Positions 27 to 55,240 of a stretch of 64,000 nt of DNA are shown piece after piece. The stretch's first letter is position 1. Each line of letters opens with the position of its first letter. Made by a program: the position numbers and the translations under genes. The stretch is from positions 35,065 through 99,064 of the IMG/VR virus record IMGVR_UViG_3300028797_000135; one strand, given 5' to 3'. Under the pieces are notes generated by a model, which was not told where the DNA came from, did not search any database, and worked only from the letters and a program-made list of their open reading frames with translations. Source of the DNA: a virus. Its lineage: Duplodnaviria > Caudoviricetes.

Positions 27-881
27 TTAACGACGGGGAGGTAGCTTCGAGAACATGTCAGAATCTCGACCGAAGCGTTTCTTGGTGAACGCCTTCTTTC
101 CGCCTGGAATCCTGTGCCACCCGAACCATATCTCGTCTGGGCCATCAAGATACATTGAAGGAATTTTTCCATTGAACTTGACATCTTCTATGTATGCCAT
201 CCTGTTGGACAGGTCTGCATATTTCCGTTTAGTCTCTGGATTGTCAGCCTGTTCCAGCCCTGTCATGAACGGGTGCATGAGAGCCTTTTCCAAGCAATAC
301 TTTCCTACAAGCTCGGCTGTTCCGCCGTGGTTAAGGGCCTCGTTGATTTCAGGGTCATTCTTGTATGCTGAAATACCAGCACCACGAGACGGAAACTTCA
401 TCCGTAGGCAATCACGTTCCCATTGGAGATACCTTCTGAAGTCCGACCTATCCTTCTGTCTACGGTCAAACATCATGTTGAGCCAAGCCTTGGCCTGTGC
501 ATCGGAGTCATACCTTTTTTCTTCCTCGCTGTACACGCTATCTTCGTCCAAGTGCTTAATTCTAGGAATCCACGTCAGGGAGTGCAGGTCAACATCGAAC
601 CAGTTGTCCTCAGGTACTCTCAAATTGTATTTATCCCTAAGCTCATGCCATTTCTTATTCACTTTCGCAAAGAACTCTTCCTTGCTGTGAGGCATAGAAC
701 TAAGGTAGTTCGCATAAGCGTCCATCCGTTCGTTAACCTCGTTGATGACATCTCCCATGTTCTCGCCGTTAATCTTCGGGCGGTTTGCACTAATCTTGTA
801 CAAATTGCTGAGAGCTTCCAATTGCGGCGTGGTAAGGTCCAGCTTGGAGATGGCTTCCATGAAAATCTTGTAATTATCCAT
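27..881 (-). CDS. hypothetical protein carrying the shared N-terminal leader motif
   Basis: ORF 27..893, with a likely ATG at 881. N-terminus YKIFMEAISKLDLTTPQLEALSNLY aligns without gaps to five other proteins in the window. Confidence 0.8.
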   Translation of the reverse strand: MDNYKIFMEAISKLDLTTPQLEALSNLYKISANRPKINGENMGDVINEVNERMDAYANYLSSMPHSKEEFFAKVNKKWHELRDKYNLRVPEDNWFDVDLHSLTWIPRIKHLDEDSVYSEEEKRYDSDAQAKAWLNMMFDRRQKDRSDFRRYLQWERDCLRMKFPSRGAGISAYKNDPEINEALNHGGTAELVGKYCLEKALMHPFMTGLEQADNPETKRKYADLSNRMAYIEDVKFNGKIPSMYLDGPDEIWFGWHRIPGGKKAFTKKRFGRDSDMFSKLPPRR

Positions 882-903
882 ATTTGACACCAATCAAATT
901 CAT

Positions 904-1257
904 CTACAGTTTATCGGTTTCCTTTTCCAGCAAATGTTGCAGATGGGTATCAATGAACATTATCTCCCAGTGGTAGGAGTTCACAATCCCGTCCATAATG
1001 GTTGCAACGAGCGTACCAGTACGGTTGCGATACACCGCAAAATGCCGTTTCATCCTGTCTGACAGGATAGTGACGACTGAATCCTGATAGCATATCCCGT
1101 GCATCTTCTTGCCTAGCAGCTCAACTTCCTTGACGTTCTTGCCGAAACGTTTCAGGACATCGACCGCCCTCTGTATCATTTCGGCAACATCGTAGTTGAT
1201 TAGCAGCTTCGGTGCGTTCTGGTCTATTACTTGTTTGTTTTGCATCATTGCTTGCAT
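904..1257 (-). CDS. hypothetical protein
   Basis: 117-aa ORF with AGGAGG SD upstream of the ATG; first gene left of the 1276-1297 palindrome. Confidence 0.8.
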   Translation of the reverse strand: MQAMMQNKQVIDQNAPKLLINYDVAEMIQRAVDVLKRFGKNVKEVELLGKKMHGICYQDSVVTILSDRMKRHFAVYRNRTGTLVATIMDGIVNSYHWEIMFIDTHLQHLLEKETDKL

Positions 1258-1275
1258 AGTGGCCTCCTAGCAATA

Positions 1276-1297
1276 CATACAGTTTATAAACTGTATG
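1276..1297. promoter_or_regulatory. bidirectional putative late promoter (perfect 22-bp palindrome CATACAGTTTATAAACTGTATG)
   Basis: TATAAACTG reads on both strands between the divergent genes starting at 1257(-) and 1315(+). Confidence 0.7.
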
Positions 1298-1314
1298 AAG
1301 ATAGAGGTCGTAAA

Positions 1315-2094
1315 ATGAAATCTCTTTTTGAACGCATCGACAAGCTCGATACAAACCTTAGGATAACCAGCGAGTGGGCCAAACGGAAGTACAACGAGTT
1401 AAATTCCCGTTTCTTCGGTGGAAGGCTCCCGAAGGACATCCAGTTCGAGATGTCTGGAACGCAAAACGCTGTCGGCGACGCATCCTGTGTCGTCAGCAAC
1501 ATGCCGTCAGCGGGAAGCATACAGGTTGGCGACAACTACGTTGGCAAACTCAAAATCCGTCTGTCCAGCTATTTCAACGACATCACCGAAACCGAGGCAG
1601 AGGAAGTCCTGCTCCACGAGATGATTCACATCTGGCAGTACGTAAGCATTCCGAAGTCCCAGTGGGGTGCCAACATGCACGGAGCGTCGTTCACAAACAA
1701 GATGAACGAAATCAACCGTATGTCAGGCGGCAAATACAACGTGACAACGACAAACGATTCCAGCATGAAGGCTCGCCACGCTGACGACCTCATGAAGAAC
1801 AAGAAGGAATACGACGAGCTTAGAGACTCCAGACTAATGTTCATCAAGGACAAGAACAACGACAGCAAGGTGGACGTAATCCGTTTCAAGGACGAAGCCG
1901 ACATGAAACAGTTTGCAGAACAGTTTGTCCCGATGCACGAACTTGAAGTTACTGGAACCGCAGCACCTCATGACATCGACGCTTATCGGTACAGGTTCGG
2001 TGCATTGAAGAACAACACGGAAGAGAACCGTAACGGCTACTACATTATGAACAAGAGAGATATCGACGAGGCAAAACGTCTCGGAGCAATCTAG
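1315..2094 (+). CDS. SprT-like zinc metalloprotease
   Basis: YNELNSRFFGGRLP, LLHEMIH (HExxH) and downstream HGASF...M..IN are typical of the SprT family; ATG at 1315 follows AGAGG. Confidence 0.85.
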   Translation: MKSLFERIDKLDTNLRITSEWAKRKYNELNSRFFGGRLPKDIQFEMSGTQNAVGDASCVVSNMPSAGSIQVGDNYVGKLKIRLSSYFNDITETEAEEVLLHEMIHIWQYVSIPKSQWGANMHGASFTNKMNEINRMSGGKYNVTTTNDSSMKARHADDLMKNKKEYDELRDSRLMFIKDKNNDSKVDVIRFKDEADMKQFAEQFVPMHELEVTGTAAPHDIDAYRYRFGALKNNTEENRNGYYIMNKRDIDEAKRLGAI

Positions 2095-2103
2095 GAGGAC
2101 AAC

Positions 2104-2301
2104 ATGTCATTGAAGAAGCAAATGTTCGAATCAGAAATCAGAAAGTTGAACCTGCCAGCGGCAATGGAATCGGTCATCAACGAACTTCACGACGTAGCGT
2201 TCCAAGAGGATGGTGACGACGAGCCTCAATACGTCGAGAAGGACTGGAAGTCCGTTGACAAGGACAACGGCGACGGAACGTCGTCTGTCGAAACTACATG
2301 A
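2104..2301 (+). CDS. 65-aa acidic protein made mostly of the shared N-terminal leader motif
   Basis: SD AGGAGG; KKQMFESEIRKLNLPAAMESVINELHDVAFQE followed by an acidic tail. Confidence 0.8.
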   Translation: MSLKKQMFESEIRKLNLPAAMESVINELHDVAFQEDGDDEPQYVEKDWKSVDKDNGDGTSSVETT

Positions 2302-2366: not shown

Positions 2367-2398
2367 AAAAGGCGGGTTCAACACCCGCTTTCTTCATA
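2362..2398. terminator. bidirectional rho-independent terminator
   Basis: AAAAAGGCGGGT-TCAAC-ACCCGCTTTCTT between convergent genes. Confidence 0.75.
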
Positions 2399-3123: not shown

Positions 3124-3657
3124 CTATACCGCAGGACCACCAGCAGCGGCAGCTCCGCCTCCGCCACCACCATCGTAGCAACCAACGGCACAACCCTGCT
3201 TGTACGGAGAGTAGTTCATCCTGTTGGGAGCAGCGAATCCACATGCCATCGGCTGTGCGCTTGCGTTATAATTAAGGACTGGATAATTCTGCTTGATGTG
3301 GCCCTGTGCGGTCTTTATCATTTCCTGAATTTTCGGGTCAGTCTTAATCTTTTCCCTCTTCCATACAATCTTGCCAGGGAAGCATTCCTTCATTTCCTTC
3401 TTAGGGTCTCGGTTTGCGTTCGGGTTTGTTGAAAGGGTCATCGGGTGCTGTTGAGCGCCAACTTCGTTCGAGTGGGAACTGTTCGTAGCCATCGGCGTCT
3501 GAATAGCATCATGAATGTTATGGTTATCAGCCATCGGCAACATCAGGTTTCGTTCAAAGCCCTCGAAACACGCCTTGTGAAGACGCTTGATGGCTTCCAA
3601 CTGGGCCTCGGAAAGGCCGAGCTTTCCGATAGATTCAAAAAACAGTTTCGTTTCCAT
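3124..3657 (-). CDS. hypothetical protein with shared N-terminal leader motif and Gly/Ala tail
   Basis: METKLFFESIGKLGLSEAQLEAIKRLHKACFEG; C-terminus GGGGGGAAAAGGPAV. Confidence 0.8.
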   Translation of the reverse strand: METKLFFESIGKLGLSEAQLEAIKRLHKACFEGFERNLMLPMADNHNIHDAIQTPMATNSSHSNEVGAQQHPMTLSTNPNANRDPKKEMKECFPGKIVWKREKIKTDPKIQEMIKTAQGHIKQNYPVLNYNASAQPMACGFAAPNRMNYSPYKQGCAVGCYDGGGGGGAAAAGGPAV

Positions 3658-3661: not shown

Positions 3662-3677
3662 ATAGTTTATAAACTAT
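3662..3677. promoter_or_regulatory. bidirectional putative late promoter (palindrome ATAGTTTATAAACTAT)
   Basis: TATAAACTA on both strands, 5 nt from an ATG on each side. Confidence 0.7.
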
Positions 3678-5611: not shown

Positions 5612-5751
5612 TTCTCGGCATCCTCCATAAATTTATGAATAGCAGTCGAGAAAGCCATGCCAATGGCAAAGCCCAAGCTCAGGATTTTCAACCCGAGCAT
5701 GAGGGCTTGTGCCTTAGCCTTGGTAGAGCGAAAGATGCCCTTTATGCTCAT
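5608..5751 (-). CDS. 47-aa putative membrane peptide (not in ORF track)
   Basis: Hand-translated MSIKGIFRSTKAKAQALMLGLKILSLGFAIGMAFSTAIHKFMEDAEK; ATGA overlap with the IF-3 stop. Confidence 0.6.
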   Translation of the reverse strand: MSIKGIFRSTKAKAQALMLGLKILSLGFAIGMAFSTAIHKFMEDAEK

Positions 5752-6347
5752 ACTGCTTCCTTAGCCTGACCCTTACCTTTCACATAGAAGAACATCCAGT
5801 CACGGGCGTTGTTCTTGTCGGTAATAGGCAATTCCTTTGTACACACAGCGTTAGCCGCAGTCATACTTTCAACAATCATCGGCTTCAAGGTAGCCATCGC
5901 AGTATCCTTGTGGGAAATTTCACGGCCATGGAACTGTACCGCAATCTTGACGGGATGACCTGCTTCAATGAATTCTGCAGCCTTGTTCATCTTCGTCTTG
6001 AAATCGTTTTCGCCAATGTTCGGACCAAAGGTGATGGTCTTTTCTTCGGAACGGCGAGCGTTTTCACGGTTCTTCTTGTCCTGTTCCTTCTGAGCCTTCT
6101 TTTTCAGGTACTCTTCCTTCTTTTGGTCGCCAAGCTTGAATACGGCAGCCTTTTCGTTCACGACAACGACATCCAATCCTTGGTCTTGTGCCAGCTTTTC
6201 AGCCTGACCATAGGTCATTTGTTCGATTGAACCATCATCCTTCTTCAATCGGATGGTGGCATTACGGTCGAAAGTCTTCGTTTCGTTAAAATCACGGGCA
6301 TCCTTGCGCTTGTAGCCGAAGTTGCCGTTATTGTAGGATTTGTACAT
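5748..6347 (-). CDS. infC: translation initiation factor IF-3 homolog
   Basis: N-domain IRL...AEKLAQDQGLDVVVV, Lys-rich linker, C-domain KTITFGPNIGENDFKTKMNKAAEFIEAGHPVKIAVQFHGRE. Confidence 0.88.
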   Translation of the reverse strand: MYKSYNNGNFGYKRKDARDFNETKTFDRNATIRLKKDDGSIEQMTYGQAEKLAQDQGLDVVVVNEKAAVFKLGDQKKEEYLKKKAQKEQDKKNRENARRSEEKTITFGPNIGENDFKTKMNKAAEFIEAGHPVKIAVQFHGREISHKDTAMATLKPMIVESMTAANAVCTKELPITDKNNARDWMFFYVKGKGQAKEAV

Positions 6348-17648: not shown

Positions 17649-18602
17649 ATGTACAGCAACGACGAACTTTCCATTTTTGAATCACAGGCTCAGTTCGAGG
17701 AGTTGAACCAGCAGTGCAAGGCCATTGCCAATCTCCCCCCAGAAGAGGAAGAAAACACCCCTGAGGATGAAGATACGATGGCACTCATCGTACAGGCAAG
17801 CCCGTACGACGACGCAACCGAACCCCTCTACAAGGCATACGGCATTTCGGGCAAGGAAATCAACGCCAAGAAAGGCCCTCTGTTTAGTTCGACTGACGAC
17901 GGGAAGCTTTCAAAGGAAGAAAAGCTTGCCATCTGTGAAGCTGGTCTTGGTCTAAACACCATGAACACAATCCATGCAATGAAGAACATCAACGCCCTTG
18001 AATCCCTTGGTTTCGAGGCTCCGTACAATGTAGGCGATACAGTTCAGTTGAAAAACAAGGACATCCCTCACATCTTCATCATCGTTTCTAATGACGGTGA
18101 CGGTTACGAGCTGGCAAAGCCGACGAACAACCGTGCTGAAATGCGTACCTGCGGCGATGGATGCTGGCCGAGAATGCACTGTTCTGGTGATGAAATTGAC
18201 CAAAGAACAATGTTCGACCTCACGGGTATCGACCATATCCTGAGGCAGAACGAGAAACTCGACAGCGAAATGCGTGAAAAGCTCTGCCCGACACTGGTCC
18301 CAGAATATGACACTGGTCGTCTAGGAATGCACCAGCTCCACGAAGCACAGATATCTCGTGTTGACAGCCGTGGACAAAAGCTTGCAAAGCAGAACCGCAA
18401 CGCCATCATGCACCAAGACATGAAGACCCTGCACGACAACCAGATAATGGATGACCAAGGTCACCTGAAACCGAACAACAAGGAACTGTTCAAGGGTATC
18501 GCCCAACGAATGGACGAAATCTTCGGTACTGGCTACAAGGACAAGTACGTGTATGACGGCGGTCCAGAAGTGCAGTGGTCCGACGAACCAATCAAGGCGT
18601 AA
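17649..18602 (+). CDS. hypothetical acidic protein
   Basis: 317-aa ORF with SD AGGA and late box. Confidence 0.8.
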   Translation: MYSNDELSIFESQAQFEELNQQCKAIANLPPEEEENTPEDEDTMALIVQASPYDDATEPLYKAYGISGKEINAKKGPLFSSTDDGKLSKEEKLAICEAGLGLNTMNTIHAMKNINALESLGFEAPYNVGDTVQLKNKDIPHIFIIVSNDGDGYELAKPTNNRAEMRTCGDGCWPRMHCSGDEIDQRTMFDLTGIDHILRQNEKLDSEMREKLCPTLVPEYDTGRLGMHQLHEAQISRVDSRGQKLAKQNRNAIMHQDMKTLHDNQIMDDQGHLKPNNKELFKGIAQRMDEIFGTGYKDKYVYDGGPEVQWSDEPIKA

Positions 18603-19007: not shown

Positions 19008-19499
19008 TTATCCATTAGTTCCTTCATCCGTTTGTTCACCAATTTCGCCACCAGCTGGTTCAACTTGTTCGTCACTAGCAGGTGTAACCGTCCCATCGCC
19101 AACAGTAATTGGCTGTTCGCCGCTATCAGGCTTTTTCTTGACCGCAATAGTGCAAAGGCCATTCTTTACCGTCGCCGTTGCATGTGCTACATCGTAGGCG
19201 CACGGGAAAGCCCATGAGAACGTGAAGTTCGGCCTCTTGATGTAATCATAGTAGGTGACATAGTTTTCTGGGTCTGGCGGTGCTGCTGCCGTAACCTTAA
19301 TCAAGTTACCCGATGCAGTAACCGTGACATTCTCGTTAGAGCAACCGACAACGGCAATCTCTATAATCAAGACTTCTTCATCATTGATGATAGCCTTCTT
19401 AAAGGCATAGGGGAAAATCGGGCGACCGAATCTCTTTGGGTCAAAGATGTCGAATACATTTTCAATCATACTGTTCAATACAGGAAGTGTTCCGTACAT
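19008..19499 (-). CDS. small heat-shock protein (Hsp20/alpha-crystallin)
   Basis: IIEIAVVGCSNENVTV...FTFSWAFP...ATVKNGLCTIAV; ATG 19499 with SD AGGAG. Confidence 0.75.
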   Translation of the reverse strand: MYGTLPVLNSMIENVFDIFDPKRFGRPIFPYAFKKAIINDEEVLIIEIAVVGCSNENVTVTASGNLIKVTAAAPPDPENYVTYYDYIKRPNFTFSWAFPCAYDVAHATATVKNGLCTIAVKKKPDSGEQPITVGDGTVTPASDEQVEPAGGEIGEQTDEGTNG

Positions 19500-19636
19500 A
19501 GTTATTCTCCTGTCGGCGGTTTGCCGACCGTTGAGTGAATGAAGGTTCCAACAGTTTGTCGAAACCTCCGTACCGTCAGGAGTTTCCGTCAGGTACAATA
19601 GAAAAAGGGAGCCACTGCGGCCCCCTTCTTCCTATT
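19500..19636 (-). ncRNA. structured 5' leader (four hairpins) of the Hsp20 gene; candidate cis-regulatory RNA
   Basis: Hairpins at 19597-19636, 19570-19596, 19541-19569 (13 bp) and 19512-19528; three have AAAC at the apex; internal CUCCUG is complementary to the SD CAGGAG. Confidence 0.5.
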
Positions 19637-20007: not shown

Positions 20008-20889
20008 CTAGATGCCAACGGCTACGCTCACACCCTTTTCGCTTGACAGGATGTTGATGGTAACATGCAACTGGCCGTTTTCCAACTTGGCCTTCACATT
20101 GTCCTCATCGACAGGCTTGGCGAACGGGAACGTGAACTTGAAGTGGTTCAACAAGTATGCAGGCACACTCGACTGTGCAGCCAGCACCTTGACTCTCTTG
20201 TTCTTCTTTCCAGCAGCAGGAGAATCTGAATGGAGCTTACGGACACCGCTAACTTCCAGACTGTTCTGCACGACCCTTACTTTAAGGTCGCTCTGAGGAA
20301 CCCCAGGTAGGTCGATGTAGCATTCGTACACTTGGTCGCTCGTCACATACATTTCAGAGAACGGTGCTCCAAAGCCATCGCTCATCTGAGGAGGCTGCTG
20401 GACAGGCTGCATCTGCTGCATAGGCTGCATCTGCATCGGCTGCTGCGGGTAGTAATAGCCAGCTGGCGGAACCTGCGGCTGTGGCTGGTAATACTGCTGC
20501 GGCTGGTAATACTGCGGTTGTGGCGGTGGTGGCGGAGCGATAGGCTGTTGCGGTTGTTGCGGCAACGGCTGTGCCACCATCTGTGCAGGAGCAACACGCT
20601 GTACCTGATTCACAGGCGGCTGCTGATAGTTGTTATACTGTGTCACAGGGCCGTTCGGGCGTGGTGCTGGGCGTTGTGGCTGCTTGCGGTTGACCTGACC
20701 AGGGATTACTCCAAGAGCGTTCCTGTTGGCCATTTCCGCCATTTCCTGAACTTGCCTTGCAGCTTCGTTGTTTGACATTGTAGGTGCGCCATTCGGTACA
20801 TCACCAACGGACTGACCTGACATAGCAAGGGTTGGTTCCTCTTCCATATTTTTGCCTCCATTAAATAATTTCTTGATAAAATTGAACAT
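20008..20889 (-). CDS. Hsp20-domain protein with long Gln/Pro-rich low-complexity N-terminus
   Basis: C-terminal YIDLPGVPQSDLKVRV..LEVSGVR...FKFTFPFAKPVDEDNVKAKLENGQLHVTI; second in-frame ATG at 20847 with GGAGG. Confidence 0.85.
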   Translation of the reverse strand: MFNFIKKLFNGGKNMEEEPTLAMSGQSVGDVPNGAPTMSNNEAARQVQEMAEMANRNALGVIPGQVNRKQPQRPAPRPNGPVTQYNNYQQPPVNQVQRVAPAQMVAQPLPQQPQQPIAPPPPPQPQYYQPQQYYQPQPQVPPAGYYYPQQPMQMQPMQQMQPVQQPPQMSDGFGAPFSEMYVTSDQVYECYIDLPGVPQSDLKVRVVQNSLEVSGVRKLHSDSPAAGKKNKRVKVLAAQSSVPAYLLNHFKFTFPFAKPVDEDNVKAKLENGQLHVTINILSSEKGVSVAVGI

Positions 20890-21683
20890 TACGAATTTAC
20901 CGTCTCTTTAAGGAGACTATAAAATTCCTTGTTTTTGGCTATCTTCTCGTATGCCGCCTTCTTGATTTTCTGGAACTCCGTTTTCTTCATGTTGAGGTTT
21001 GCCGCAATATCGGCTGCGGGAAGGATAACATCGTCCTTCAATCCGAACGAATACCTCATTATGTAGAGTTCCTTCTTATCAAGGCTATTTTCCAGCATCT
21101 TCCACAGGGTAGCCTTCATGTTGTCGTGTTCGAGTTCTGCAATGCCGTCCGAGTTGACATCAGGCGCCTCGTTATGGAAGCCATCCTGTTCATCCTCAGT
21201 TGAAGCCCTGACCGACTGTTTCAGGTTGGTCATAACTTCCTTTGCATGGTCCTCTCTTTCAGTGTAATCCGTCTCGTTGAGGCGACGCTTCTTGGCGACA
21301 TTTGCCTTCAATGCGATAGGAATCCTGATTAAATCATCGTCTGACACAAATGTGTTCAACGCACGGCGTACATACCACACGACAAACGAGATGAATTTCG
21401 TGCCCACATGGGGGTCGTACTTGTTAAAGGCTTCAATCAGGCCGATTTTCGCCTCGGAGAACAAGTCATCAATGGACTTGTTGCAAACCTTGGCCTTTTC
21501 ACTGGCCATCTTGAATGCAAACTTCAGGTTAGCCAAGATAATCTTGTCGAAGATTTCCTTCTTTCGGGCTTCATCCGTGCTATTTGCATACTCGTCAAAC
21601 AGACGGGCTTCCTCCTCCCGACTCATTTTAACCGATTTGTTAAGTTCTGCCTTTATGCATGGTGTAATCTTACAGTAATCCAC
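20889..21683 (-). CDS. phage-encoded sigma70-family RNA polymerase sigma factor
   Basis: Region 1.2 (SREEEARL), region 2 (ANLKFA...DDLFSEAKIGLIEAFNKYDP..GTKFISFVVWYVR..LIRIP) and region 4 (LDKKELYIMRYSFGL...DIAANLNM). Confidence 0.88.
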   Translation of the reverse strand: MDYCKITPCIKAELNKSVKMSREEEARLFDEYANSTDEARKKEIFDKIILANLKFAFKMASEKAKVCNKSIDDLFSEAKIGLIEAFNKYDPHVGTKFISFVVWYVRRALNTFVSDDDLIRIPIALKANVAKKRRLNETDYTEREDHAKEVMTNLKQSVRASTEDEQDGFHNEAPDVNSDGIAELEHDNMKATLWKMLENSLDKKELYIMRYSFGLKDDVILPAADIAANLNMKKTEFQKIKKAAYEKIAKNKEFYSLLKETVNS

Positions 21684-25959: not shown

Positions 25960-25968
25960 TAGTTTATA
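25960..25968 (-). promoter_or_regulatory. putative late promoter box TATAAACTA
   Basis: 30 nt upstream of ATG 25929. Confidence 0.65.
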
Positions 25969-28286: not shown

Positions 28287-30306
<2,020 letters not shown>

Positions 30307-31023: not shown

Positions 31024-31686
31024 CTATTCCCTGTTGACATACAGGTTGATGTCATAATCGACCGAATCGATTCTGAATGTCTTCACGTACTTGAAGTGGA
31101 CTTGTCTCATCAGGTTGTTCGTAGTGTAGTCATCGGCAGGGCATACCAAGAACGTTGCAATCTTCTGTTCCAACAAATGGTTGACAAGTTCCTGTCCAAT
31201 AGGGTACTCGTTCATTTCAGAAGATACGACGAAATACTCGATTTCAAGCCTGTTGTCCAGATTGTACGCACTATGGAGAGAATACGCCTCTGCTGGGACA
31301 ATGTTCATGTAGTTTTCCTTTGTCGGGTCAGACAGCGTAAGTACACCGACAGGAATATCCTCGTATGTGATGTACTCCACCATGTCCGCATTCTTGATTT
31401 GTTCCACCGTATCTGGCTTAGATACAATACGCTTCAAGTTGCGGAAGTCATCACTGTACTTTCCGTCAATCAGCTTTCCCAGCTCATTCAACATGTTGTC
31501 GTCAATCTGACTCGGATTCTTGATATACAGCTTGAATTTATCATCAAACGGGCCACTGTTCGTCTGTCCGTCAATTTCAAATCCGTCGATTACCCCGCCA
31601 TCATCTTCAGGCTGGTATTCCTGTATAATCGATTCACCGCTTATAGCTTCAAACAACTCGTGTTCAGGAACGTCATTGAAATCCAT
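31024..31686 (-). CDS. GNAT-fold acetyltransferase-like protein
   Basis: EIEYFVVSSEMNEYPIGQELV...NNLMRQVHF resembles GNAT motifs A and B (degenerate). Confidence 0.55.
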   Translation of the reverse strand: MDFNDVPEHELFEAISGESIIQEYQPEDDGGVIDGFEIDGQTNSGPFDDKFKLYIKNPSQIDDNMLNELGKLIDGKYSDDFRNLKRIVSKPDTVEQIKNADMVEYITYEDIPVGVLTLSDPTKENYMNIVPAEAYSLHSAYNLDNRLEIEYFVVSSEMNEYPIGQELVNHLLEQKIATFLVCPADDYTTNNLMRQVHFKYVKTFRIDSVDYDINLYVNRE

Positions 31687-33958: not shown

Positions 33959-33967
33959 TAGTTTATA
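33959..33967 (-). promoter_or_regulatory. putative late promoter box TATAAACTA
   Basis: 16 nt upstream of ATG 33942; its TAA is the stop of the upstream gene. Confidence 0.65.
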
Positions 33968-36302
33968 ATATCGGGGCATCCTTCAACTTGGCCAGACGGT
34001 GCTGCCAACGTAAAACAAAATTGATTTGGTCTTCTTCCCAGTCATCGCCACCGACATAATCCATGTAGTCTATGCAGGTTACAACATTCGTGTCCATTAC
34101 GCACACCCTCTGGCGGCACTCATGGCAGAACATCGAAAGTTCAGCGGCAATGTGGTCATCCCCGATTACATAGCCATTCAGTATGCGGACACGGAGAATG
34201 TCAGGTATCATGCTAGCCCTGATAGCGAATACGGGGCCTCCTAGAATGTTCACATCGGTAAGCTGTCCGAACCCGAGTTCACCTATGATTTTTCTGGTGC
34301 TGTTATCCTTAACGGACAACCCTTCATAACATCCATAGGAATCGTGGCTGTCATGCCAGTTGAACGAGCTAGGAACCGTTTTCCAGCCATATACGCCAAC
34401 CATACCAACATCAGTAGGAAGCCTGTCAAGTTTTTCCTTCCAGAAAATGTCAGATATGCAGGTAGAGCTGTCCATGTAAATGAACCAGTCTGGCGGACAA
34501 CTGAATGTTTCCTCCTCCATTTTGAACATTCCCGAGAACAACGCCTTGACACTCAGGGAAACCCTGTTCGCACTGTTCTTCCTCGTAAAGAAGTGGTTCG
34601 GATGGTACACATAGTCGTATGTCTTGTAGCCGCCATCGAACCTCTTGTACATATCCACATTGCCCCTCTTGTATATGCAACGGAACACCTGTGGCGATGT
34701 CAACGACTTGACAACATCGTTAGTTGTAACGGCAGGATTCTTGACGGGGGTCAAGCCGAGGATTCCTCTCATCTTGTTGTCGTGTTCTATTTCCTTCTGC
34801 TTAATCTTTTTCAGGAGGCGTTTCTTTTCATCATGAACAAGGCGAGGTTCGTTAATCTTCGTGTCAAGCGCAAGGGTAACGTCATCGTCCGTAACCTCGT
34901 GGTACTGGTACGGGCTTTTCTTCCTACTTTCGACACACTTCTTGTGCATCATGATAATGGAGAACTTGCCCTTCTTGTAACGCAGGGCATTTTCCTCCTT
35001 GTCAATCTTCAGTTTCTTCCTGATAAATTCACGGGTGATGTCAATGAAGTTTCCACCCTTGATTAAAGCCTCGATATCGACATAGTTGATACCAATCATC
35101 ACTTCCTTAATCTTGCTGTCATGATAGGTAGACCAAGTCATTATCTTTCCAGAAGCCAGTTTTACATGGACCTTTTCGCTATCCTTTGCATAAGTGTCAA
35201 TCCACTTATCATTGACACCGTATCTGTTCTTGATGTGCCTCCTAGTGATGAACTCTCTCCCGAGTCCATACAGGTTTCCGCAATCCCTTTCGTAAATGTA
35301 CCTATCAAGGTCTTCCACGAGGAACATTGCAAAGCCTTTTCCTGAACGGCTGAGCTTTGAACCGTTTGCCTTTCGTACAGGGCGTATCAGCTTCCGTTCG
35401 TATCTAGCACGTAGCCATTCCTTCTTGTTAGCCCCGACGTATATCCTAGCCATGTCACTAGAAATGATGTCCTTCAACGGGTTGTAAATAGAGGTGTCAC
35501 CCTTGTGTGAAGCAATGAATTTCCTTATGTCGTCAGATGAGTACCTGTCAGTAACATAACCATCCACCGTCTTCATCTTCCTTGGCTTGTACACAGCAAA
35601 GAACTCATTTGACTTGGCAGTGTTGCCGATAACGTCAACGACATCCTCAAACGAAATCGTTGCGTTAGCCTTCGCCAACATATCAAGGAAACGGTTATGG
35701 CGGTTATACACATCCAAGTCCTTCTTGTAATAAACGATATGCTTCTCGCCATCGGTTGAAACCTGTTCCTTGAACGGAATATCCTGTGCAATCGACTCGA
35801 ACTTTTCCTGAGACACCCCAAGGTATTCTGCAGCTTCCATTCGTCCAAACGTGGAAAACGGAAGGTCTTTCCTCCTGAACTCGATAGACAGGAGCTTGCA
35901 CCGTTCCACCACCTCTGGTTCACGATACAGACGGTCGCCGTTGCTGTCGAGAATGTAGAACAGGTTGTGCAGGATATCCCTGTCATATACCCATTCCACG
36001 GTACGGTTCAGGTTGCGGCAGATGTATTTCAGGCTGATATACTTTACGTTGTCCTTCAACACACGGTCCGCCTCGGAAAGCTCATACAGACCGTACTCCA
36101 CATTGGATTGGAGCAACTGTTTCGTATCAGTCGGAATCTCGTACTTTATTTCGTCATAGTTAACCTTTCCGGAGGATTCCTCCTTCAAGAAATCCATGCT
36201 TGCAATCTCCTCGTCGTTGACAACGGGGGAGATGTCATAATCGGATGCAAGAGCAAGCGTGTCTTGCGGTAGTTTCCAAAGCTCGTCGTGTATCGGTTTC
36301 AT
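33963..36302 (-). CDS. multi-HTH (MerR/excisionase-like repeats) protein fused to a C-terminal glycosyltransferase-like domain
   Basis: About five repeats such as FGRMEAAEYLGVS...YYKKDLD; C-terminal WFIYMDS...VGMVGVYG...GGPVFAIR...AELSMFCHECRQRVCV is GT-A-like. Confidence 0.55.
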   Translation of the reverse strand: MKPIHDELWKLPQDTLALASDYDISPVVNDEEIASMDFLKEESSGKVNYDEIKYEIPTDTKQLLQSNVEYGLYELSEADRVLKDNVKYISLKYICRNLNRTVEWVYDRDILHNLFYILDSNGDRLYREPEVVERCKLLSIEFRRKDLPFSTFGRMEAAEYLGVSQEKFESIAQDIPFKEQVSTDGEKHIVYYKKDLDVYNRHNRFLDMLAKANATISFEDVVDVIGNTAKSNEFFAVYKPRKMKTVDGYVTDRYSSDDIRKFIASHKGDTSIYNPLKDIISSDMARIYVGANKKEWLRARYERKLIRPVRKANGSKLSRSGKGFAMFLVEDLDRYIYERDCGNLYGLGREFITRRHIKNRYGVNDKWIDTYAKDSEKVHVKLASGKIMTWSTYHDSKIKEVMIGINYVDIEALIKGGNFIDITREFIRKKLKIDKEENALRYKKGKFSIIMMHKKCVESRKKSPYQYHEVTDDDVTLALDTKINEPRLVHDEKKRLLKKIKQKEIEHDNKMRGILGLTPVKNPAVTTNDVVKSLTSPQVFRCIYKRGNVDMYKRFDGGYKTYDYVYHPNHFFTRKNSANRVSLSVKALFSGMFKMEEETFSCPPDWFIYMDSSTCISDIFWKEKLDRLPTDVGMVGVYGWKTVPSSFNWHDSHDSYGCYEGLSVKDNSTRKIIGELGFGQLTDVNILGGPVFAIRASMIPDILRVRILNGYVIGDDHIAAELSMFCHECRQRVCVMDTNVVTCIDYMDYVGGDDWEEDQINFVLRWQHRLAKLKDAPIL

Positions 36303-36383: not shown

Positions 36384-37337
36384 TTAGATGAACACGTTCA
36401 TTCCTGCGTTCAGTGCCTGCCTGACATCATCATCGGCAACACCGCCTTCCAGCGAAGTGGGCTGGGACAGCATTTCCTTGGTCACATCAGGGCTGTTATA
36501 CACCTTGTTCTTAGATAGTCCCTGCCCAAGGGCTTCAAATGCAGCATTCTTGCTGCCGAAGCCTACGGAGGCCAGTTTGGGTGCGGGGCGTACCTTTTTG
36601 CCGACAGCGGCGTTTCCACCAGCGGGATATCTTACCTCGTTCACTTTGAGGTTGTTCTTGCGATAGTTGTCCAGACCGTTCTCGGCGATATCGTCGTTCA
36701 TCAGGCTGTCCGCTATCTCGTTAAGTTCATTCATATCAACTTGGTTCGGGGCCTTGATTTCTCCGATACCGCTAAATTCTCTGCTCGTAATAGAGTTGGA
36801 ATCAATACCGTTGATATAGTTAAATATGTCTTCTCGTTTCAGGTCGTCAAGGGAAATGTCCCTATTCGGGTCGGTGAAGTATTCGACTGCCCTTTGCTGA
36901 ATCTCTGGACGATAACCGTTGGTTTCACGGAGAACCTTGTCGGTAATCTTGGCGTACATAAGCTGCTTCATAGCACGCTTGTACTCAACCACCTTTTCTT
37001 GGAGTTCCGTCTTCAGCTGGGCAACCGTTTTCTTGGCTTCCCTTTCCTGCGTAGTTTCTATCTGGCATTCTTCAAGGACATTTACAATCTTTTGCAAAGC
37101 CTCGAAGAGCTTGCCCTTGACGGCGTTCTCGCCCATGCTGTCCACTTTCTTCTGAACAGCAGGTTTAACCAACGCATCCCATTGCCCAGATACGGCCTCG
37201 ACCAAGGACTTGAACTGGCGGTCGCCCCTAGCCTCGTAGTCAGCTATCGCCTTATTGCAATTCGATTCAATCTTTGTTACAATATCAGGGGCGATACTAC
37301 CTAGTTCTTCTTGTGTTAAAAAATCTGACAGTTGCAT
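36384..37337 (-). CDS. prohead core scaffolding protein, T4 gp22-like
   Basis: Coiled-coil protein directly downstream of the prohead protease (T4 gene order 21-22); several (F/V/L)E(A/G) sites. Confidence 0.6.
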   Translation of the reverse strand: MQLSDFLTQEELGSIAPDIVTKIESNCNKAIADYEARGDRQFKSLVEAVSGQWDALVKPAVQKKVDSMGENAVKGKLFEALQKIVNVLEECQIETTQEREAKKTVAQLKTELQEKVVEYKRAMKQLMYAKITDKVLRETNGYRPEIQQRAVEYFTDPNRDISLDDLKREDIFNYINGIDSNSITSREFSGIGEIKAPNQVDMNELNEIADSLMNDDIAENGLDNYRKNNLKVNEVRYPAGGNAAVGKKVRPAPKLASVGFGSKNAAFEALGQGLSKNKVYNSPDVTKEMLSQPTSLEGGVADDDVRQALNAGMNVFI

Positions 37338-37342: not shown

Positions 37343-38071
37343 TCACCTTGTACGCAAATAGTTAAGCAGTGCATCCTTGTTATAAACGTGAAACCTGTCA
37401 GTGCGGAAATCCATGTTACGATTAAGTACAATTTCCTTGCCGTAACGCTCAATGCACTCGGTAAGAATCTTGTGGGACTTTCTCTTTCCAGCGTCGCTTT
37501 CAAAGTGGCTCGTGATAAGCGCCTTGTTGTCGAAGCTCGGGTTTCCAACAACGTCAACAGTAATCAAAGTATAATCAGGGTCGATTTCTTCATAACCAGT
37601 GGGAAGCTTGATTGTGTCACCAGCACCACGCAAAGAGTAACCTGGGGTGTAGCCAGCCTTGATTAGACCAGCAAGGTTTCTACCAGCGTCAGTATCTTCG
37701 GCGACAACCATGCGGCAATAAAGATTCTTTCCCTCCATACGGAGTTCTTCGATAACAGCACAAGTCTTCCACAGATTCATTTCAAAAATTGGGTAATCCT
37801 TCGGGTTTCCCTCAATGTCTACACGAGGGTGGTTCAACTCCGCTGCGAGTCGTCCAAGGCGAATCTTCGTCCTGTTCAGCTTTTCAACTTCCCTTGCGAT
37901 GATTGCCCTAGGATATGAACGACCATTAATACCTGGCTCGTCACAAACAATAGCTGTGCCTTCCAGAATGAGTCTTTTCACCTTATTACCAAACACGTCG
38001 GTGCGTTCCGCAACAGTCACCTTGCTGTCGTCAAAATTCGGAACGCCAATAATTTCCCGTACCTTTCCCAT
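37343..38071 (-). CDS. prohead core protease, T4 gp21-like
   Basis: LEG...NGRSYP, AELNHP, GYSLRGAG and LITVDVVGNPS catalytic motifs; alternative GTG start at 38089. Confidence 0.92.
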   Translation of the reverse strand: MGKVREIIGVPNFDDSKVTVAERTDVFGNKVKRLILEGTAIVCDEPGINGRSYPRAIIAREVEKLNRTKIRLGRLAAELNHPRVDIEGNPKDYPIFEMNLWKTCAVIEELRMEGKNLYCRMVVAEDTDAGRNLAGLIKAGYTPGYSLRGAGDTIKLPTGYEEIDPDYTLITVDVVGNPSFDNKALITSHFESDAGKRKSHKILTECIERYGKEIVLNRNMDFRTDRFHVYNKDALLNYLRTR

Positions 38072-38085
38072 GACGCTTCCCCTAC

Positions 38086-38265
38086 TCACGCCTTCTTGGG
38101 TGAGTTAATACTTTCCATGACTATCTTGGTTTTCTCTTTCGTACAGATGCTATACGCAGATTCCATATAGGCATTGACGAGCTTCTCCACATTGGTGGAG
38201 TCGCCATTAAGCAGATAGCTTATCAGCGAGCGAGCGTCATTGTCTTTAAGTCCTGGTATTGGCAT
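38086..38265 (-). CDS. small prohead core protein, T4 gp67-like
   Basis: LISYLLNGDSTNVEKLVNAYMESAYSICTKEKTKIVMES resembles the gp67 pattern; located upstream of gp21. Confidence 0.55.
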   Translation of the reverse strand: MPIPGLKDNDARSLISYLLNGDSTNVEKLVNAYMESAYSICTKEKTKIVMESINSPKKA

Positions 38266-38371: not shown

Positions 38372-39106
38372 CTAAATTCCGTTATTGTTCTGTGAGATAT
38401 CTTCTTCGGGAACTGGATTTTCTGCAGGTTGTTCCATCGGAGTTTCTGTCGGGGTTTCCTCAACAGGTTCTTCCTCGACTGGATTTGGCGTCACCGCTGG
38501 TACTTTATACTGCTTTGCAGCCTTGATAATACTCATCCAGTTCGTCATCACAGCATTGAACGCAGCAAGAAGATGCTTGCATACCCTATTCTTGTGATGT
38601 GGGTCCCTTACATTAGGCGGGATGTCCTCACCGCCAGACGGTACACCTTCAACCGACTCATATCCAGCCAGATAGCTGTCGTAAACGTGTTTAAGATTGT
38701 ACTTCATGCCAGACCAGTTGAAGTCTGGGCATGTACAGAACACCTTCACATCACATGAACGCAACAAGCCAATCTTTGCGGCAGGAGTCATAGGACCCTG
38801 TGCCATGCTGAACAAAGTTCCTTTCTTGGGTATGAACTCGATATAGACATCATAGTTCTTGCCCTCGGTTGCCGAAGGTACGACAAAGTGGACAACAGCC
38901 TGACCGCTATCCTTGTTCATAGTCAGGTCGTTAAAATGGAAAGTGAGCGTCTTGCTCCTGTATTTACGGAGATTGTCGGCAGGCCCCGAAAGGTCCTTCA
39001 TGGTCGCCTCGAAGCATGCGTCATAAAGACGAGAAACGCTATTGTACTGGCGCCTGTTTAGACCAAGATTGCCTACCGCTTCCAAAAAGATTTTCTTCTC
39101 GTTCAT
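38372..39106 (-). CDS. SWIM-type zinc-finger protein with shared N-terminal leader motif
   Basis: KKIFLEAVGNLGLNRRQYNSVSRLYDACFEA; VFCTCPDF...VCKHLLA. Confidence 0.75.
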   Translation of the reverse strand: MNEKKIFLEAVGNLGLNRRQYNSVSRLYDACFEATMKDLSGPADNLRKYRSKTLTFHFNDLTMNKDSGQAVVHFVVPSATEGKNYDVYIEFIPKKGTLFSMAQGPMTPAAKIGLLRSCDVKVFCTCPDFNWSGMKYNLKHVYDSYLAGYESVEGVPSGGEDIPPNVRDPHHKNRVCKHLLAAFNAVMTNWMSIIKAAKQYKVPAVTPNPVEEEPVEETPTETPMEQPAENPVPEEDISQNNNGI

Positions 39107-39115: not shown

Positions 39116-41728
39116 CTAGCTAAAAAGCACTTCCGCATCATGGTTCTCCATGATGAAAATTCCATCCATGCCAGCCTTCTTCACATGGATTGCAACAAGG
39201 TCTACATCAAGTCGCACCAAGTTTCCAAAGAAATTGTTGTTGCGGGCTATCTTGTACACCTCATTGTTTCCGCCAGTGAACTGGTCAGCCAAAACATACG
39301 TGTAAGGATATCCGCCATGAGCAAGGATGTCCTCACGGAATGCAGTTATTGCTGCATCAGATACTGCACTCGGGTCAATAGAACCGCCCGATATCGTTTT
39401 CAACTGGGCCTTGAACATTCCTTGTCCACCAACACCATAAGGAAGGTTTCCAGAAAATGCGCCGCAAGCAATGTATTCATCAGCATTTTCCAACGGATTG
39501 ATGATATCGTAGAACTGCTTCAAATACTTCTTCGATACGGCAGCACTCCTCTCGGGCTTAACAGGATTATACACCCTTACGTTTGCAAAGTGGTCGTTGA
39601 CTGCGTTAGAAACAATCGGGTTTCTCTCGTAAGCACTTGCTGGATTCGTTGCAATAACAAGCGTATTTCTTGACACAGGAGTTTCCTCGCCATCCAACGC
39701 CATCTTGATTAACTTCAAGATATTCTTGATTAGCATCGGGTTGCTGGCAAATGAAGTCACCTTGCGAATACCCTTTTCGATAGAAGATATAAGGCCAAGA
39801 CCTTCTCCGCCAACCTGAGTTTCCTTAGTCCTGTCGCCTACAAGGAACTTCGACATCAAGCTTCCATTCTTGATTTCCTTTATCAGCTGGCGTTCCGCCT
39901 TATCTGCGTTTACCTCAACCAGTTTAAGGCGTTTCTCCAACAGCTTGTCCATAGCGCCGAGCTTGCCCTTTGAATTCTTGGATTTCTTGGCCTTGGTATA
40001 CTTCGATGTGTATTTCATCGCAATCGCCTTGAATATCGGATGGCGAATGTTGATAAACGGGATTCCGAACACTTCCGTATAAGGCTTGTTTATCTCGACG
40101 TGCGACTTGCTCAGGCCATATCCTGCTGGAATGTAAGCCCGAGTTGCAATATTCATTCCATGGTCGATACTTATCGTATCCTTAGCCTTGGCTGCGGTGT
40201 CGTCAGCCGTGTCGTGCCTATCAATAGGTTTCTGCGGGTTCATCAGCTCTTCGCAATAATGCTCGATTGCATTTGTCTGCGAAGCACGATAACCACGGCT
40301 CACCATACTGTCCACAACACGCTCAACATCCTCGTTGTCATAACTATTGTGATACTTTGCCGCAAGTTCATCCATCTTCTCGATGACAGCAGCATACAGG
40401 GCGGCAGCTTCTCCTTGGGAGTACGATTCCATGTTGAGGTTGATATCTTGCAGGTCAACACCAACCGTGCTTGCTCCGCATAACGTCCTCAGCATCTTGT
40501 AGAATGCCTCATAGTCGCCTTCTTCAACAACATGAAGCATTTCAGGATTGTCAGCCAATATTCTCTTGTATGCAACTAGATACTTGTCTTCTACATCACT
40601 AAGGTTCGGTCCGTATATCAGGCATGCAACAGCCACCGCCAGTTTAATCAACTCATCAACGCTGTCGTCAACGCTGTTTCCAACCTTCAATTCTCCAGAC
40701 TGTCCTGTACTGCCCAAATACTGGATGATAAACCCATTTTCAACCATGACTCTCGCCTTGGTGTAGCCAAAGCCCTGAATAACAAATACACCACCATCAG
40801 AACTCTTATCGTACAGTTCCTTGCAATAAAAGATGATATCTATGGCTTCAAATGTTTTATCGGTATTCCTTTTTATGTACGAGATAATCTCAGACACAAT
40901 GATAGCCAAGGCCCGCTGGCTTCCAGCAACCACGATAGCCTTTACGAACTGAATAAAGGAATCGCAAGCCTCACTACATAGCGTTGAATCATACTTCTTT
41001 TGAATAGTTTTCATTGCAGCAGGGTCTACCGCATTTAGAAACTCAACAACCTCGGAAGGCTTTACACCACTATCCTTCATTGACTGTGTCAATATCTTAG
41101 CAAGAGGAATGTCGGTAGATGGCTCTTTTTCCTTGGCCTGTGCCCTTTCAGGCTTAGTATCTTCATTAACCTTAGGGCGTTCCTTCCTATGAGGATTAGC
41201 ATTCCGCAACGACAGTTCCCCGTTGCCGCCACCCCCTTGTTTCTGTGAAGCCGACCCTTCATTTGATGTCTTCGGGGTTTCCTCAACTTTCTGTTCAGAG
41301 TTGGGATTCCCTCCCGCTGACAATGCAGCTGCACTTTGTTCTTCCTGTTGTTTAACAGCTTGTTCTGCCTGTTGTTCAGCACTTTGTTCTTCCTTTGGCT
41401 TCACTTTTGGTTCTGGCAATCTTTCTTCAACTTCACTAACAGTAGGGTCAACATCATCGTCATCGTCATTAGAATCAAGCCCAAAGATAAAACCTACATC
41501 TTCATCCTTAGGCTCTTCGCTACTGAAGTGTTCCAACACCGCCGCTTCCTCTGCGTCGCTCATTTCATCAATCGCAACTGTCTTGTCCCCGTCCCCATCA
41601 AGGCCAAAAACCATGTTCAAAAAATCCTCTCCAACCCCGATATCGTCGTCAGAAGCATCAGTATTGGTAGGCCCAACATTTTGGAGGGGTTTAGACTCTT
41701 CAACATTTACGTCGTTTTCTAGTGACAT
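39116..41728 (-). CDS. 870-aa hypothetical protein with acidic disordered N-terminus
   Basis: Long ORF with late box upstream. Confidence 0.8.
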   Translation of the reverse strand: MSLENDVNVEESKPLQNVGPTNTDASDDDIGVGEDFLNMVFGLDGDGDKTVAIDEMSDAEEAAVLEHFSSEEPKDEDVGFIFGLDSNDDDDDVDPTVSEVEERLPEPKVKPKEEQSAEQQAEQAVKQQEEQSAAALSAGGNPNSEQKVEETPKTSNEGSASQKQGGGGNGELSLRNANPHRKERPKVNEDTKPERAQAKEKEPSTDIPLAKILTQSMKDSGVKPSEVVEFLNAVDPAAMKTIQKKYDSTLCSEACDSFIQFVKAIVVAGSQRALAIIVSEIISYIKRNTDKTFEAIDIIFYCKELYDKSSDGGVFVIQGFGYTKARVMVENGFIIQYLGSTGQSGELKVGNSVDDSVDELIKLAVAVACLIYGPNLSDVEDKYLVAYKRILADNPEMLHVVEEGDYEAFYKMLRTLCGASTVGVDLQDINLNMESYSQGEAAALYAAVIEKMDELAAKYHNSYDNEDVERVVDSMVSRGYRASQTNAIEHYCEELMNPQKPIDRHDTADDTAAKAKDTISIDHGMNIATRAYIPAGYGLSKSHVEINKPYTEVFGIPFINIRHPIFKAIAMKYTSKYTKAKKSKNSKGKLGAMDKLLEKRLKLVEVNADKAERQLIKEIKNGSLMSKFLVGDRTKETQVGGEGLGLISSIEKGIRKVTSFASNPMLIKNILKLIKMALDGEETPVSRNTLVIATNPASAYERNPIVSNAVNDHFANVRVYNPVKPERSAAVSKKYLKQFYDIINPLENADEYIACGAFSGNLPYGVGGQGMFKAQLKTISGGSIDPSAVSDAAITAFREDILAHGGYPYTYVLADQFTGGNNEVYKIARNNNFFGNLVRLDVDLVAIHVKKAGMDGIFIMENHDAEVLFS

Positions 41729-41754: not shown

Positions 41755-41763
41755 TAGTTTATA
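41755..41763 (-). promoter_or_regulatory. putative late promoter box TATAAACTA
   Basis: 26 nt upstream of ATG 41728. Confidence 0.65.
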
Positions 41764-53999: not shown

Positions 54000-54024
54000 A
54001 TCGATAGTCTCTGAAATACATCAA

Positions 54025-54071
54025 TAGTTTATAATGTGTCACAGGCACCGTTTCGTGCCTATTATAAACTA
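54025..54071. promoter_or_regulatory. divergent pair of late boxes (54025-54033 minus; 54063-54071 plus) flanking a small hairpin
   Basis: TAGTTTATA...AGGCAC-CGTTTC-GTGCCT...TATAAACTA; 25-26 nt from both ATGs. Confidence 0.7.
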
Positions 54072-54097
54072 TATTCAGAATTAATCGAGGATTATTC

Positions 54098-55240
54098 ATG
54101 ACCAACCGAACCAAGATATTCACTGAATCCGTGTCCCAGCTCGGGGTAGGGAAACCTGAACTAGAAGCATTGACACGACTGTTCAAGGTGTGTCTCGAAA
54201 GCGCCCTAGAAGAAGATGACGAGGAAGACTATAGCGAAGACGGATTCATTCGGAACGCATTTGACAGCGACGAAGACAATGCAGATGCATCTACTCTCAT
54301 TAGTGCAACCTCATTCGGAAAGGAAGACCTGCCCGATGACATATCCAAAGAGGAAACAAGTCCTTTCGACTATCCTATTGAATGGGAAAATAACGACAAT
54401 GAAGACGACAACGACAATGACAACACCCCGATGGAAGCATTCAATGCTACGGCAGGAACAAATCTAACCAAAGCCTATACACTGCTTGCGCCAAAATTAC
54501 TAGCCAAAGGATGTTGTAACGCAAATAACATAGATAACCTTCACGAATTTATTAACTGGCTTCTCTCTGTATTCGAAACTAAATTCAAGTCTGACACTGC
54601 CCTAAATACTTTTGCAAAAGACACAAAATACGATGCCAACCGCATGGATAAGGTCATCAACGTCATCGATAACGGCAAAAAGACAGCCCAACTTTTATCA
54701 GAAATCAATACTACACTCGAAGACGCTCTTGTAAACGCAACGCTTAACAACAGTAAGGCCATATCCAATGCAGCAGGTCAAATCAACAATTACATTGTTA
54801 AGAGATTTGACCACGCAGCATCAGAAAGCCAGATGACAGCCGAACAGAGTGACCCAAACGTAATCACAAAATGGGATGGCGTCGGCTTCGTTGATATTGA
54901 TAGAGACGTTGACCACATGGACCCTAATGAAGCACCAGCAAGCCAAGAGGAGATTAACAGTAAATTCGACAAAAATAAAACTGCTACACAATCAGACCCA
55001 GCAATCTTCAAAGAAGATTCCGATATAGACGAGATAGATAAGGCACTAAATGCCTTTATCAGCGTCATACCGACCGCTGCTGTTAAACCTGATGAGGCAG
55101 AAGCATTTAATAAACCTCTCGACAAAGCCTTGATAGACACTGCCAAAGAGATGGCAGAAAAACGTGCCAGCTTAATGAAAAGCCATGCAGGTAACATTGT
55201 CGATTCGTCCGTATTGAACTACGACGACGATGACCTATAA
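54098..55240 (+). CDS. acidic protein with shared N-terminal leader motif
   Basis: RTKIFTESVSQLGVGKPELEALTRLFKVCLES followed by an Asp/Glu-rich linker; SD GAGGA. Confidence 0.8.
   Translation: MTNRTKIFTESVSQLGVGKPELEALTRLFKVCLESALEEDDEEDYSEDGFIRNAFDSDEDNADASTLISATSFGKEDLPDDISKEETSPFDYPIEWENNDNEDDNDNDNTPMEAFNATAGTNLTKAYTLLAPKLLAKGCCNANNIDNLHEFINWLLSVFETKFKSDTALNTFAKDTKYDANRMDKVINVIDNGKKTAQLLSEINTTLEDALVNATLNNSKAISNAAGQINNYIVKRFDHAASESQMTAEQSDPNVITKWDGVGFVDIDRDVDHMDPNEAPASQEEINSKFDKNKTATQSDPAIFKEDSDIDEIDKALNAFISVIPTAAVKPDEAEAFNKPLDKALIDTAKEMAEKRASLMKSHAGNIVDSSVLNYDDDDL

Follow-up and report, generated by a model that had tools for sequence, protein, structure and literature searches.

Among described systems in which an N-terminal tag addresses proteins to a phage head, the closest to the one analysed here is the capsid targeting sequence (CTS) of phage T4, on which Mullaney and Black reportedly worked in 1996. 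The CTS, carried by IPI, IPII, IPIII and Alt, is necessary and sufficient for head loading and is removed by gp21, which cuts after Glu (PMC9026906, PMC5694885). T4 gp21 recognises L/I-x-E and shreds gp22, gp67 and gp68 (PMC9026906, PMC10052503). The phiKZ and SPN3US proteases gp175 and gp245 cut after Glu in A/S/G-x-E (PMC10052503, PMC5694885), and in this phiKZ/201phi2-1/SPN3US type of system the paralogues gp53 and gp54 have an identical N-terminus (PMC10052503, PMC5694885). In phage P1, the first 30 residues of DarB suffice to carry a reporter into the capsid, whereas 9 residues do not (PMC9024508). Here we analyse an N-terminal leader, 28 residues in its core and about 33 counted from Met, that heads unrelated proteins encoded in a 64,000-nucleotide stretch of phage DNA (hereafter the window), bases 35065-99064 of the 99,064-bp virus record IMGVR_UViG_3300028797_000135 (Duplodnaviria; Caudoviricetes), which is itself a fragment.

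Like the T4 CTS, the leader is an N-terminal tag on unrelated proteins of one phage that also encodes an S77 protease of the gp21 type, it ends in Glu followed by a small residue, its genes appear to be expressed late, and the core proteins are rich in the same type of site. One carrier, protein E, has its gene just ahead of those for the small core protein and the protease, roughly where T4 has its prohead core genes. Unlike the CTS, the leader (known here from sequence alone) is three times longer, against 10-20 residues for the T4 tag, is predicted to form a two-helix hairpin, has about 20 carriers per genome instead of about four, heads cargo of up to 1385 aa, has Cys rather than L/I at P3 of the presumed cleavage site and shows no sequence similarity to the T4 tag. 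It thus lies outside the T4 type of linear tag of 10-20 residues; a form of 16-19 residues occurs in relatives of E from other clades. The propeptides of phiKZ, 201phi2-1 and SPN3US are comparable in that they belong to giant phages, stand at the N-termini of internal or ejection proteins and accompany a gp21-like protease cutting after Glu, but they range from 20 to 254 aa without one portable consensus, whereas here a single 28-aa consensus heads many families. The A/S/G-x-E site type is not that of the leader either, with Cys at P3 in 77 of 112 clusters, and the protease matches the Pfam S77 model and T4 gp21 directly. The P1 DarB signal is similar in length, but P1 Dar proteins have neither a common consensus nor a gp21-type processing site and P1 belongs to an unrelated phage group. 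Encapsulin cargo-loading peptides and microcompartment encapsulation peptides also place a short helical address tag and a flexible linker on unrelated cargo, to be read by the shell interior, and encapsulin shells have the phage capsid fold. Such tags mostly stay on the protein, in encapsulins often sit at the C-terminus, and belong to cellular compartments, not virions; the leader shares with them the helical tag and linker on unrelated cargo, and differs in being N-terminal, presumably clipped and viral. A literature search found no paper describing such a leader or such expansions.

The leader is probably a capsid-targeting propeptide of the T4 CTS kind, removed by the S77 head protease, and longer, folded and much expanded relative to it. 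We read it so because of its N-terminal position, the unrelated cargo, the presence of the S77 protease, the conserved Glu and small residue in a predicted loop, the enrichment of the same site in scaffold-like and core proteins, the association with a late box, the peptidoglycan-acting cargo and the helix-turn-helix fold.

The Leader Family in the Record

Six proteins encoded in the window begin with the leader:

27-881, minus strand: leader protein A, 284 aa; leader residues 1-34 (780-881), without the terminal (F/L)-E; GATAAACTG about 28 nt upstream.
2104-2301, plus strand: leader protein B, 65 aa; leader 2104-2208 ending AFQE, acidic tail; second gene, behind the SprT-like gene.
3124-3657, minus strand: leader protein C, 177 aa; leader 3559-3657 ending ACFE/G; exact box 3663-3671, 6 nt upstream.
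21772-25929, minus strand: leader protein D, 1385 aa, no known domain; leader 25825-25929 ending VLFE/G, acidic hypervariable linker; box 25960-25968.
38372-39106, minus strand: leader protein E, 244 aa; leader 39005-39106 ending ACFE/A; SWIM-type zinc-finger body.
54098-55240, plus strand: leader protein F, 380 aa; leader 54098-54202 ending VCLE/S, acidic linker; box 54063-54071.

An earlier note on this DNA had grouped these N-termini as one ungapped pattern, and their start codons and peptides (881 minus, 2104 plus, 3657 minus, 25929 minus, 39106 minus and 54098 plus) stand as it wrote them, together with the two deviations at the final (F/L)-E, which A lacks and which reads FQE in B. The similarity among them is beyond chance. 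Profiles built from the five other copies and run against the six-frame translation of the 99-kb record recovered A, C, E and F with E values of 2.9e-12 to 7.5e-5; D (0.094) and B (15) were missed by these five-seed profiles and were recovered at 8.7e-8 and 2.5e-6 by a broader profile from which their own orthologues had been left out, and the best match in a reversed-sequence control had an E value of 0.68. Third-codon-position identity among the copies is 0.14-0.54, and thus the leader is conserved as a protein under selection on the peptide, not as a DNA repeat.

The family is real, but six was too small a count for it. The six-seed profile, run over all stop-to-stop frames, found two more clear copies at record positions 13176 and 14601 on the minus strand, which with two weaker copies, likewise outside the window, brings the 99-kb record to eight clear and two weaker copies. 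Every match in the record is N-terminal, and no internal site scores. The acidic linker proposed to follow the leader was also borne out, Asp and Glu making up 24% of the 30 residues after it against 15% overall. No family match was obtained for the six leader proteins, and no Pfam, PHROG or NCBIfam model covers the leader; 32 leaders scanned singly, at E values up to 1, gave scattered matches, each in at most two members, with a best E value of 0.052.

The partial leaders that had been claimed for the SprT-like protein (MKSLFERIDKLD) and for a 2115-aa protein are visible by eye and gain no score with the profile, and both were rejected as members:

1315-2094, plus strand: SprT-like metalloprotease, directly upstream of B; its first 12 residues resemble leader helix 1 only, and it is not a scored member.

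Two box-headed or late-region proteins, at 17649-18602 (plus strand) and 31024-31686 (minus strand), have leader-like N-terminal fragments (…LSIFESQAQFEEL… and …HELFEAISGES…) that do not reach profile score either; they may be short or degenerate tags.

Fold, Conservation, and Spread of the Leader

Folded alone with the paralogue alignment, the leader is predicted by AlphaFold2 to consist of a helix (residues 2-11), a turn and a second helix (residues 17-37), with a pLDDT of 89, in keeping with the helix-turn-helix-like shape suggested earlier from the sequence. In the full-length model of E, the body has a pLDDT of 89-97 and the leader a lower one of 58-68. Helix 2 ends at Cys31, and F32-E33-A34-T35 form a loop between it and the well-modelled body, so that the presumed scissile bond E33-A34 is exposed in the model.

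Conservation is concentrated in the leader and falls off behind it. In the family of D (15 clusters, 41-50% identity), the mean identity to the D of the window falls from 0.84 in the leader to 0.27 over the 30 residues behind it and is 0.42-0.50 in the body; no other 29-residue stretch of this 1385-aa protein is as well conserved as the leader. Between the window and orthologues in a complete relative (G002, below), conservation of the leader equals or exceeds that of the body in A, C, D, E, F and G (a protein of the record outside the window), but not in H. The family of E allows a wider comparison, its body being present in several phage clades, across which hardly any variation is seen in the Glu that closes the pre-sequence. 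This pre-sequence has 16-19 residues in other clades, with Phe at position 6 and an ending L-L-E-N or M-L-E-A; in the window's clade it has 33, the turn and most of helix 2 being inserted between the conserved ends. From this comparison, the long leader seems to have been elaborated from a short tag of the T4 kind, at a processing boundary that stayed conserved.

The closest IMG/VR relatives of the record include complete, terminally repeated genomes of 419 and 422 kb (G001 and G002), and such complete 419-422 kb relatives carry about 16-21 leader copies each. The six-seed profile, at E values up to 1, gives 16 matches in G001 and 19 in G002, and a motif scan adds four diverged copies in G001, where at least 21 of about 500 genes carry a leader. 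The invariant Phe follows Met at a distance of 1-7 residues (9 in the weakest copy) in a set of 37 distinct copies taken from four genomes.

A 32-sequence profile run against 1.84 billion cluster representatives returned 114 matches at E values up to 0.001, two of them false, namely the repeat protein P0010 and P0105, whose repeated motif is unrelated. Among the 112 real clusters, the Phe lies within the first 12 residues in 86, the start is over-called in five, one modular family accounts for 17, and the leader is truly internal in three. The expectation that matches would be confined to N-termini therefore holds beyond the record for 91 of the 112 clusters (five of them after correction of over-called starts), but not for the three internal cases nor for the 17 in which the leader stands behind an in-frame late box. 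In the column profile of these clusters, F6 is present in 111, followed by L/I/M at 13, G/N at 14, L/I at 15 and A22, and the end is marked by C30 (77 clusters), L/F/M/Y31 (96), E32 (88) and A/S/G33 (89). The consensus ending is accordingly C-(L/F/M)-E-(A/S/G), after which comes an acidic hypervariable linker.

In a sister clade with genomes of 253 kb, two adjacent genes of G004 (228594-228958; L016, L011 and L013) that adjoin the head module have a diverged leader-like N-terminus ending L-C-E-S or L-L-E-S. A profile of the 16-aa pre-sequence form found nothing in G004, and the idea of a common short pre-sequence in this clade was rejected, as a profile made from its own leader-like N-termini finds these two adjacent genes only. 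With so few there, the large expansion seems specific to the 420-kb clade.

Head Module and Protease

The head module, on the minus strand, has the order 870-aa protein, leader protein E, 59-aa protein, Peptidase_S77 protease and 317-aa helical scaffold-like protein:

39116-41728, minus strand: 870-aa protein heading E's unit; late box 41755-41763; no family match.
38086-38265, minus strand: 59-aa conserved protein, presumed prohead core substrate, just upstream of the protease; two hydrophobic-E-(S/A/G) sites.
37343-38089, minus strand: prohead serine protease of the gp21 type (Peptidase_S77), presumed leader-removing enzyme; phrog_207 6.5e-31, PF03420 5.3e-14.
36384-37337, minus strand: scaffold-like helical protein, 317 aa, downstream of the protease; six hydrophobic-E-(G/S/A) sites.

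That the window encodes a gp21-like protease, as had been claimed, is clear from its matches to PF03420 (52.6 bits against a cut-off of 27), to phrog_207 and to the T4 gp21 structure (5jbl, 1.2e-7), with the His in ELNHP and the Ser in GYSLRG at aligned positions. The density of hydrophobic-E-(G/S/A) sites is 4.1 per 1000 residues in the G001 proteome and 5.1 in the bodies of the cargo proteins, but reaches 18.8 in the scaffold-like protein and as much as 33.9 in the 59-aa protein, an enrichment of 5-8 times in the latter two. K-(I/L)-E-S at residues 22-25 of the scaffold-like protein and both sites of the 59-aa protein are kept in two clades whose proteases are about 57% identical. Such enriched and conserved sites would fit a protease cutting after Glu before a small residue.

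The N-terminus of the scaffold-like protein resembles the leader by eye (F6, LG, K-I-E-S), but a profile-profile probability of 0.4% led us to reject it as a homologue. The 870-aa protein may be the portal, to judge from its position and size. The C-terminal part of the 779-aa protein (33963-36302), encoded after the scaffold-like gene, weakly resembles glycosyltransferases, with a Pfam match of 1.5e-4 that stays below the cut-off and an atlas match that agrees.

Late Box and Possible Nested Genes

The window contains 17 occurrences of TATAAACTR, where 0.86 would be expected, and they precede structural genes. We take this sequence to resemble the T4 late promoter TATAAATA, and this likeness, together with the genes that it heads, suggests that it is a late promoter. 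The earlier note had placed all six leader genes in units headed by the box. This holds directly for C, D and F, whose start codons are preceded at 6-31 nt by an exact TATAAACTA; A has GATAAACTG, with one mismatch, and B and E, which lack a box themselves, appear to be downstream genes of box-headed units. The association is nonetheless strong in G001, where an exact TATAAACTR lies within 60 nt upstream of 11 of 17 leader genes, while of the 518 other genes 38 have one (an odds ratio of 23, with p 1e-8). The unit of B is headed by the following box:

1285-1293, plus strand: late box heading the SprT-like gene (true ATG 1315) and B; overlaps an opposite-strand box at 1280-1288.

Late boxes on opposite strands overlap in the palindrome AGTTTATAAACT at 1280-1293 and 3663-3676, in both cases between divergent genes (904-1257 minus and 1315 plus; 3657 minus and 3682 plus), and these palindromic boxes look like two-way late promoters. 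A recurrent artefact of start calling in the clade also involves the box: public gene calls (P0035, P0051 and P0081) and the open reading frame 1231-2094 run upstream through it, and over-called starts show it as Y-K-L about 10 codons before the true Met.

The 17 clusters in which the leader stands behind an in-frame box form one modular family, which is absent from the 99-kb record and occurs once in G001:

G001 63161-64651 (L045, L051): modular family with internal leader; also G002 L031, G005 L026 and clusters P0001-P0047.

Its members begin with a conserved 55-aa N-terminal part ending M-H-I-F-x-E-(S/A), followed by optional inserted modules and (Y/D)-K-L-(L/I)-G-E-S...M-D-K-R; then come the leader, variable modules joined at C-M-E-G-V, and a C-terminal P-E-F. 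The Y-K-L of this family is the late box read in frame, as TAT AAA CTA 36 nt before the Met in G002 and as GAT AAA CTA in G001 and G005, and the spacing from box to Met equals that of free-standing leader genes. In G001, a separate exact box lies 33 nt upstream of the full-length frame. The internal box may yield a shorter, leader-first product (a nested late gene) or may be the relic of a fusion at a "box + leader" cassette. A broader scheme is conceivable, and we regard it as doubtful: the leader would have become a folded docking domain by insertion of a turn and second helix into an ancestral, CTS-like pre-sequence of 16 residues, and with its late promoter it would form a mobile cassette of box, start and leader that could be placed before or inside genes, the modular frame then yielding two products, a late protein of full length and a shorter one, addressed to the head, that starts from the in-frame box (TAT-AAA-CTA, Y-K-L).

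Cargo

The cargo proteins are unrelated, range from 59 to 1385 aa and mostly have no known domain; no shared cargo domain was found. The body of E contains a SWIM-type zinc finger (C-x-C...C-x-H) conserved in several clades of large uncultivated phages. Its fold has no match in the PDB, and in a viral structure library it matches only uncharacterised SWIM-type proteins of the jumbo phages BcepSauron, Y3 and Motura. Homologues of the 1385-aa protein D are confined to the window's clade, and searches of Pfam, PHROGs, NCBIfam and a protein atlas gave no function for it. Among the leader proteins of G001, one has an SLT transglycosylase domain and two have peptidoglycan-binding (PG_binding_1) domains, which suggests that part of the cargo acts on the cell wall at infection. 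The C-terminus of protein G resembles a peptidoglycan-binding motif by eye.

Proposed Role and Alternatives

If the leader is a propeptide of the CTS kind, about twenty unrelated proteins would be made late in infection with this module at their N-termini. The leader would dock them onto the assembling prohead core, made of scaffold and core proteins, and the shell would close around them. The S77 protease of the gp21 type would then cleave C-(L/F/M)-E/(A/S/G) behind its conserved Glu, with a second cut possible after F-x-E near the start of the leader, and the cargo would be freed inside the head, from which part of it, such as the transglycosylase and the peptidoglycan-binding proteins, would leave with the DNA. 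Docking, encapsidation, cleavage and ejection are what we infer from the comparisons above, and for ejection the argument is the nature of the cargo domains. The capsid-loading and clipping interpretation of the earlier note thus agrees with every indirect test that was run, whereas its partial leaders found no support, a few relatives carry an internal leader, and its ejection step draws only on the cargo domains.

Several observations weigh against this interpretation. The leader is truly internal in three clusters (P0079, P0094 and P0107), and in the modular family it stands behind an N-terminal part of 55-500 aa that has its own late box. The terminal Glu is missing in copy A and in some relatives, and Cys at P3 of the presumed site (77 of 112 clusters) corresponds neither to the L/I of T4 nor to the A/S/G of phiKZ and SPN3US. 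The more distant 253-kb clade has just two leader-like N-termini. DNA and protein searches yielded no close cultured relative, the sole match being a weak one to an unannotated metagenomic record, and no search identified the major capsid protein or the portal, the 538-, 779- and 870-aa proteins being without a match. Peptidoglycan-acting cargo, finally, could equally belong to the tail.

The leader might instead be a docking module for virion assembly that is not clipped, being retained or directing its carriers to the tail, baseplate, portal channel or inner body. A folded helix-turn-helix in place of a short linear tag would suit such a role, as would the copies without the terminal Glu; SLT and peptidoglycan-binding domains are typical both of tail-associated lysins and of internal proteins, and leader genes share their box, and so their regulation, with tail genes. 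We consider this unlikely, given that conservation drops sharply after E-(A/S/G) and that the Glu is near-invariant across clades in the E family, as expected of a processing boundary, that one leader gene lies within the protease and scaffold module, and that the same type of site is enriched in scaffold-like and core proteins. Less probable still is a module unrelated to the virion, serving oligomerisation, chaperone recruitment, degradation or localisation of late proteins. The link to the capsid is indirect, two-helix hairpins often serve dimerisation or docking, the phage encodes Hsp20-like and SprT-like proteins, and a few leader copies are internal, all of which would be compatible with such a module; it would leave unexplained, however, the conserved ending in Glu and a small residue and its match to the scaffold-like and core sites, the place of E in the head module, and the short T4-CTS-like pre-sequence at the same place in relatives of E.

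It could also be asked whether the common 5' end is kept at the level of nucleic acid, as a promoter-leader cassette for expression or recombination with the peptide as a by-product. The late box lies at a fixed distance from the start codon, box and leader mark the junction of module exchange in the modular family, and T-even internal-protein loci shuffle around conserved 5' sequences. Against this, the copies are almost random at third codon positions (identity 0.14-0.54) and yet keep their residue pattern. The columns under conservation correspond to hydrophobic and helical residues together with a Cys and a Glu, the paralogue alignment gives a confident fold, and we hold this explanation to be very improbable.

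Should the leader indeed be a clipped capsid-targeting propeptide, it would reveal the head-loaded and probably DNA-delivered proteins of uncultivated 420-kb phages, about twenty per genome and some of them very large, a set of proteins otherwise invisible without a cultured phage. The head-loading principle of T4, there a 10-residue tag on four proteins, would then be seen to scale up to a folded module of 30 residues carried by 4% of genes, and the conserved Cys-hydrophobic-Glu site would represent a third type of specificity in the gp21 protease family. A defined peptide and a defined protease might perhaps be used for loading proteins into large capsids.

Other Features of the Window

Structural genes predominate in the window and include, besides the head module and large proteins, two features:

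28287-30263: collagen-like fibre.
61659-63998: baseplate-wedge relative.

Several proteins of 1245-2115 aa without a family are encoded as well. The phage further encodes a sigma-70 region-2 protein (20889-21683), a possible reader of the TATAAACTR box, a translation initiation factor-like protein (5748-6347) and an Hsp20-like protein (19008-19598). Translation initiation factor 1A is also carried by the "Jug" gut jumbo phages (PMC12880540).

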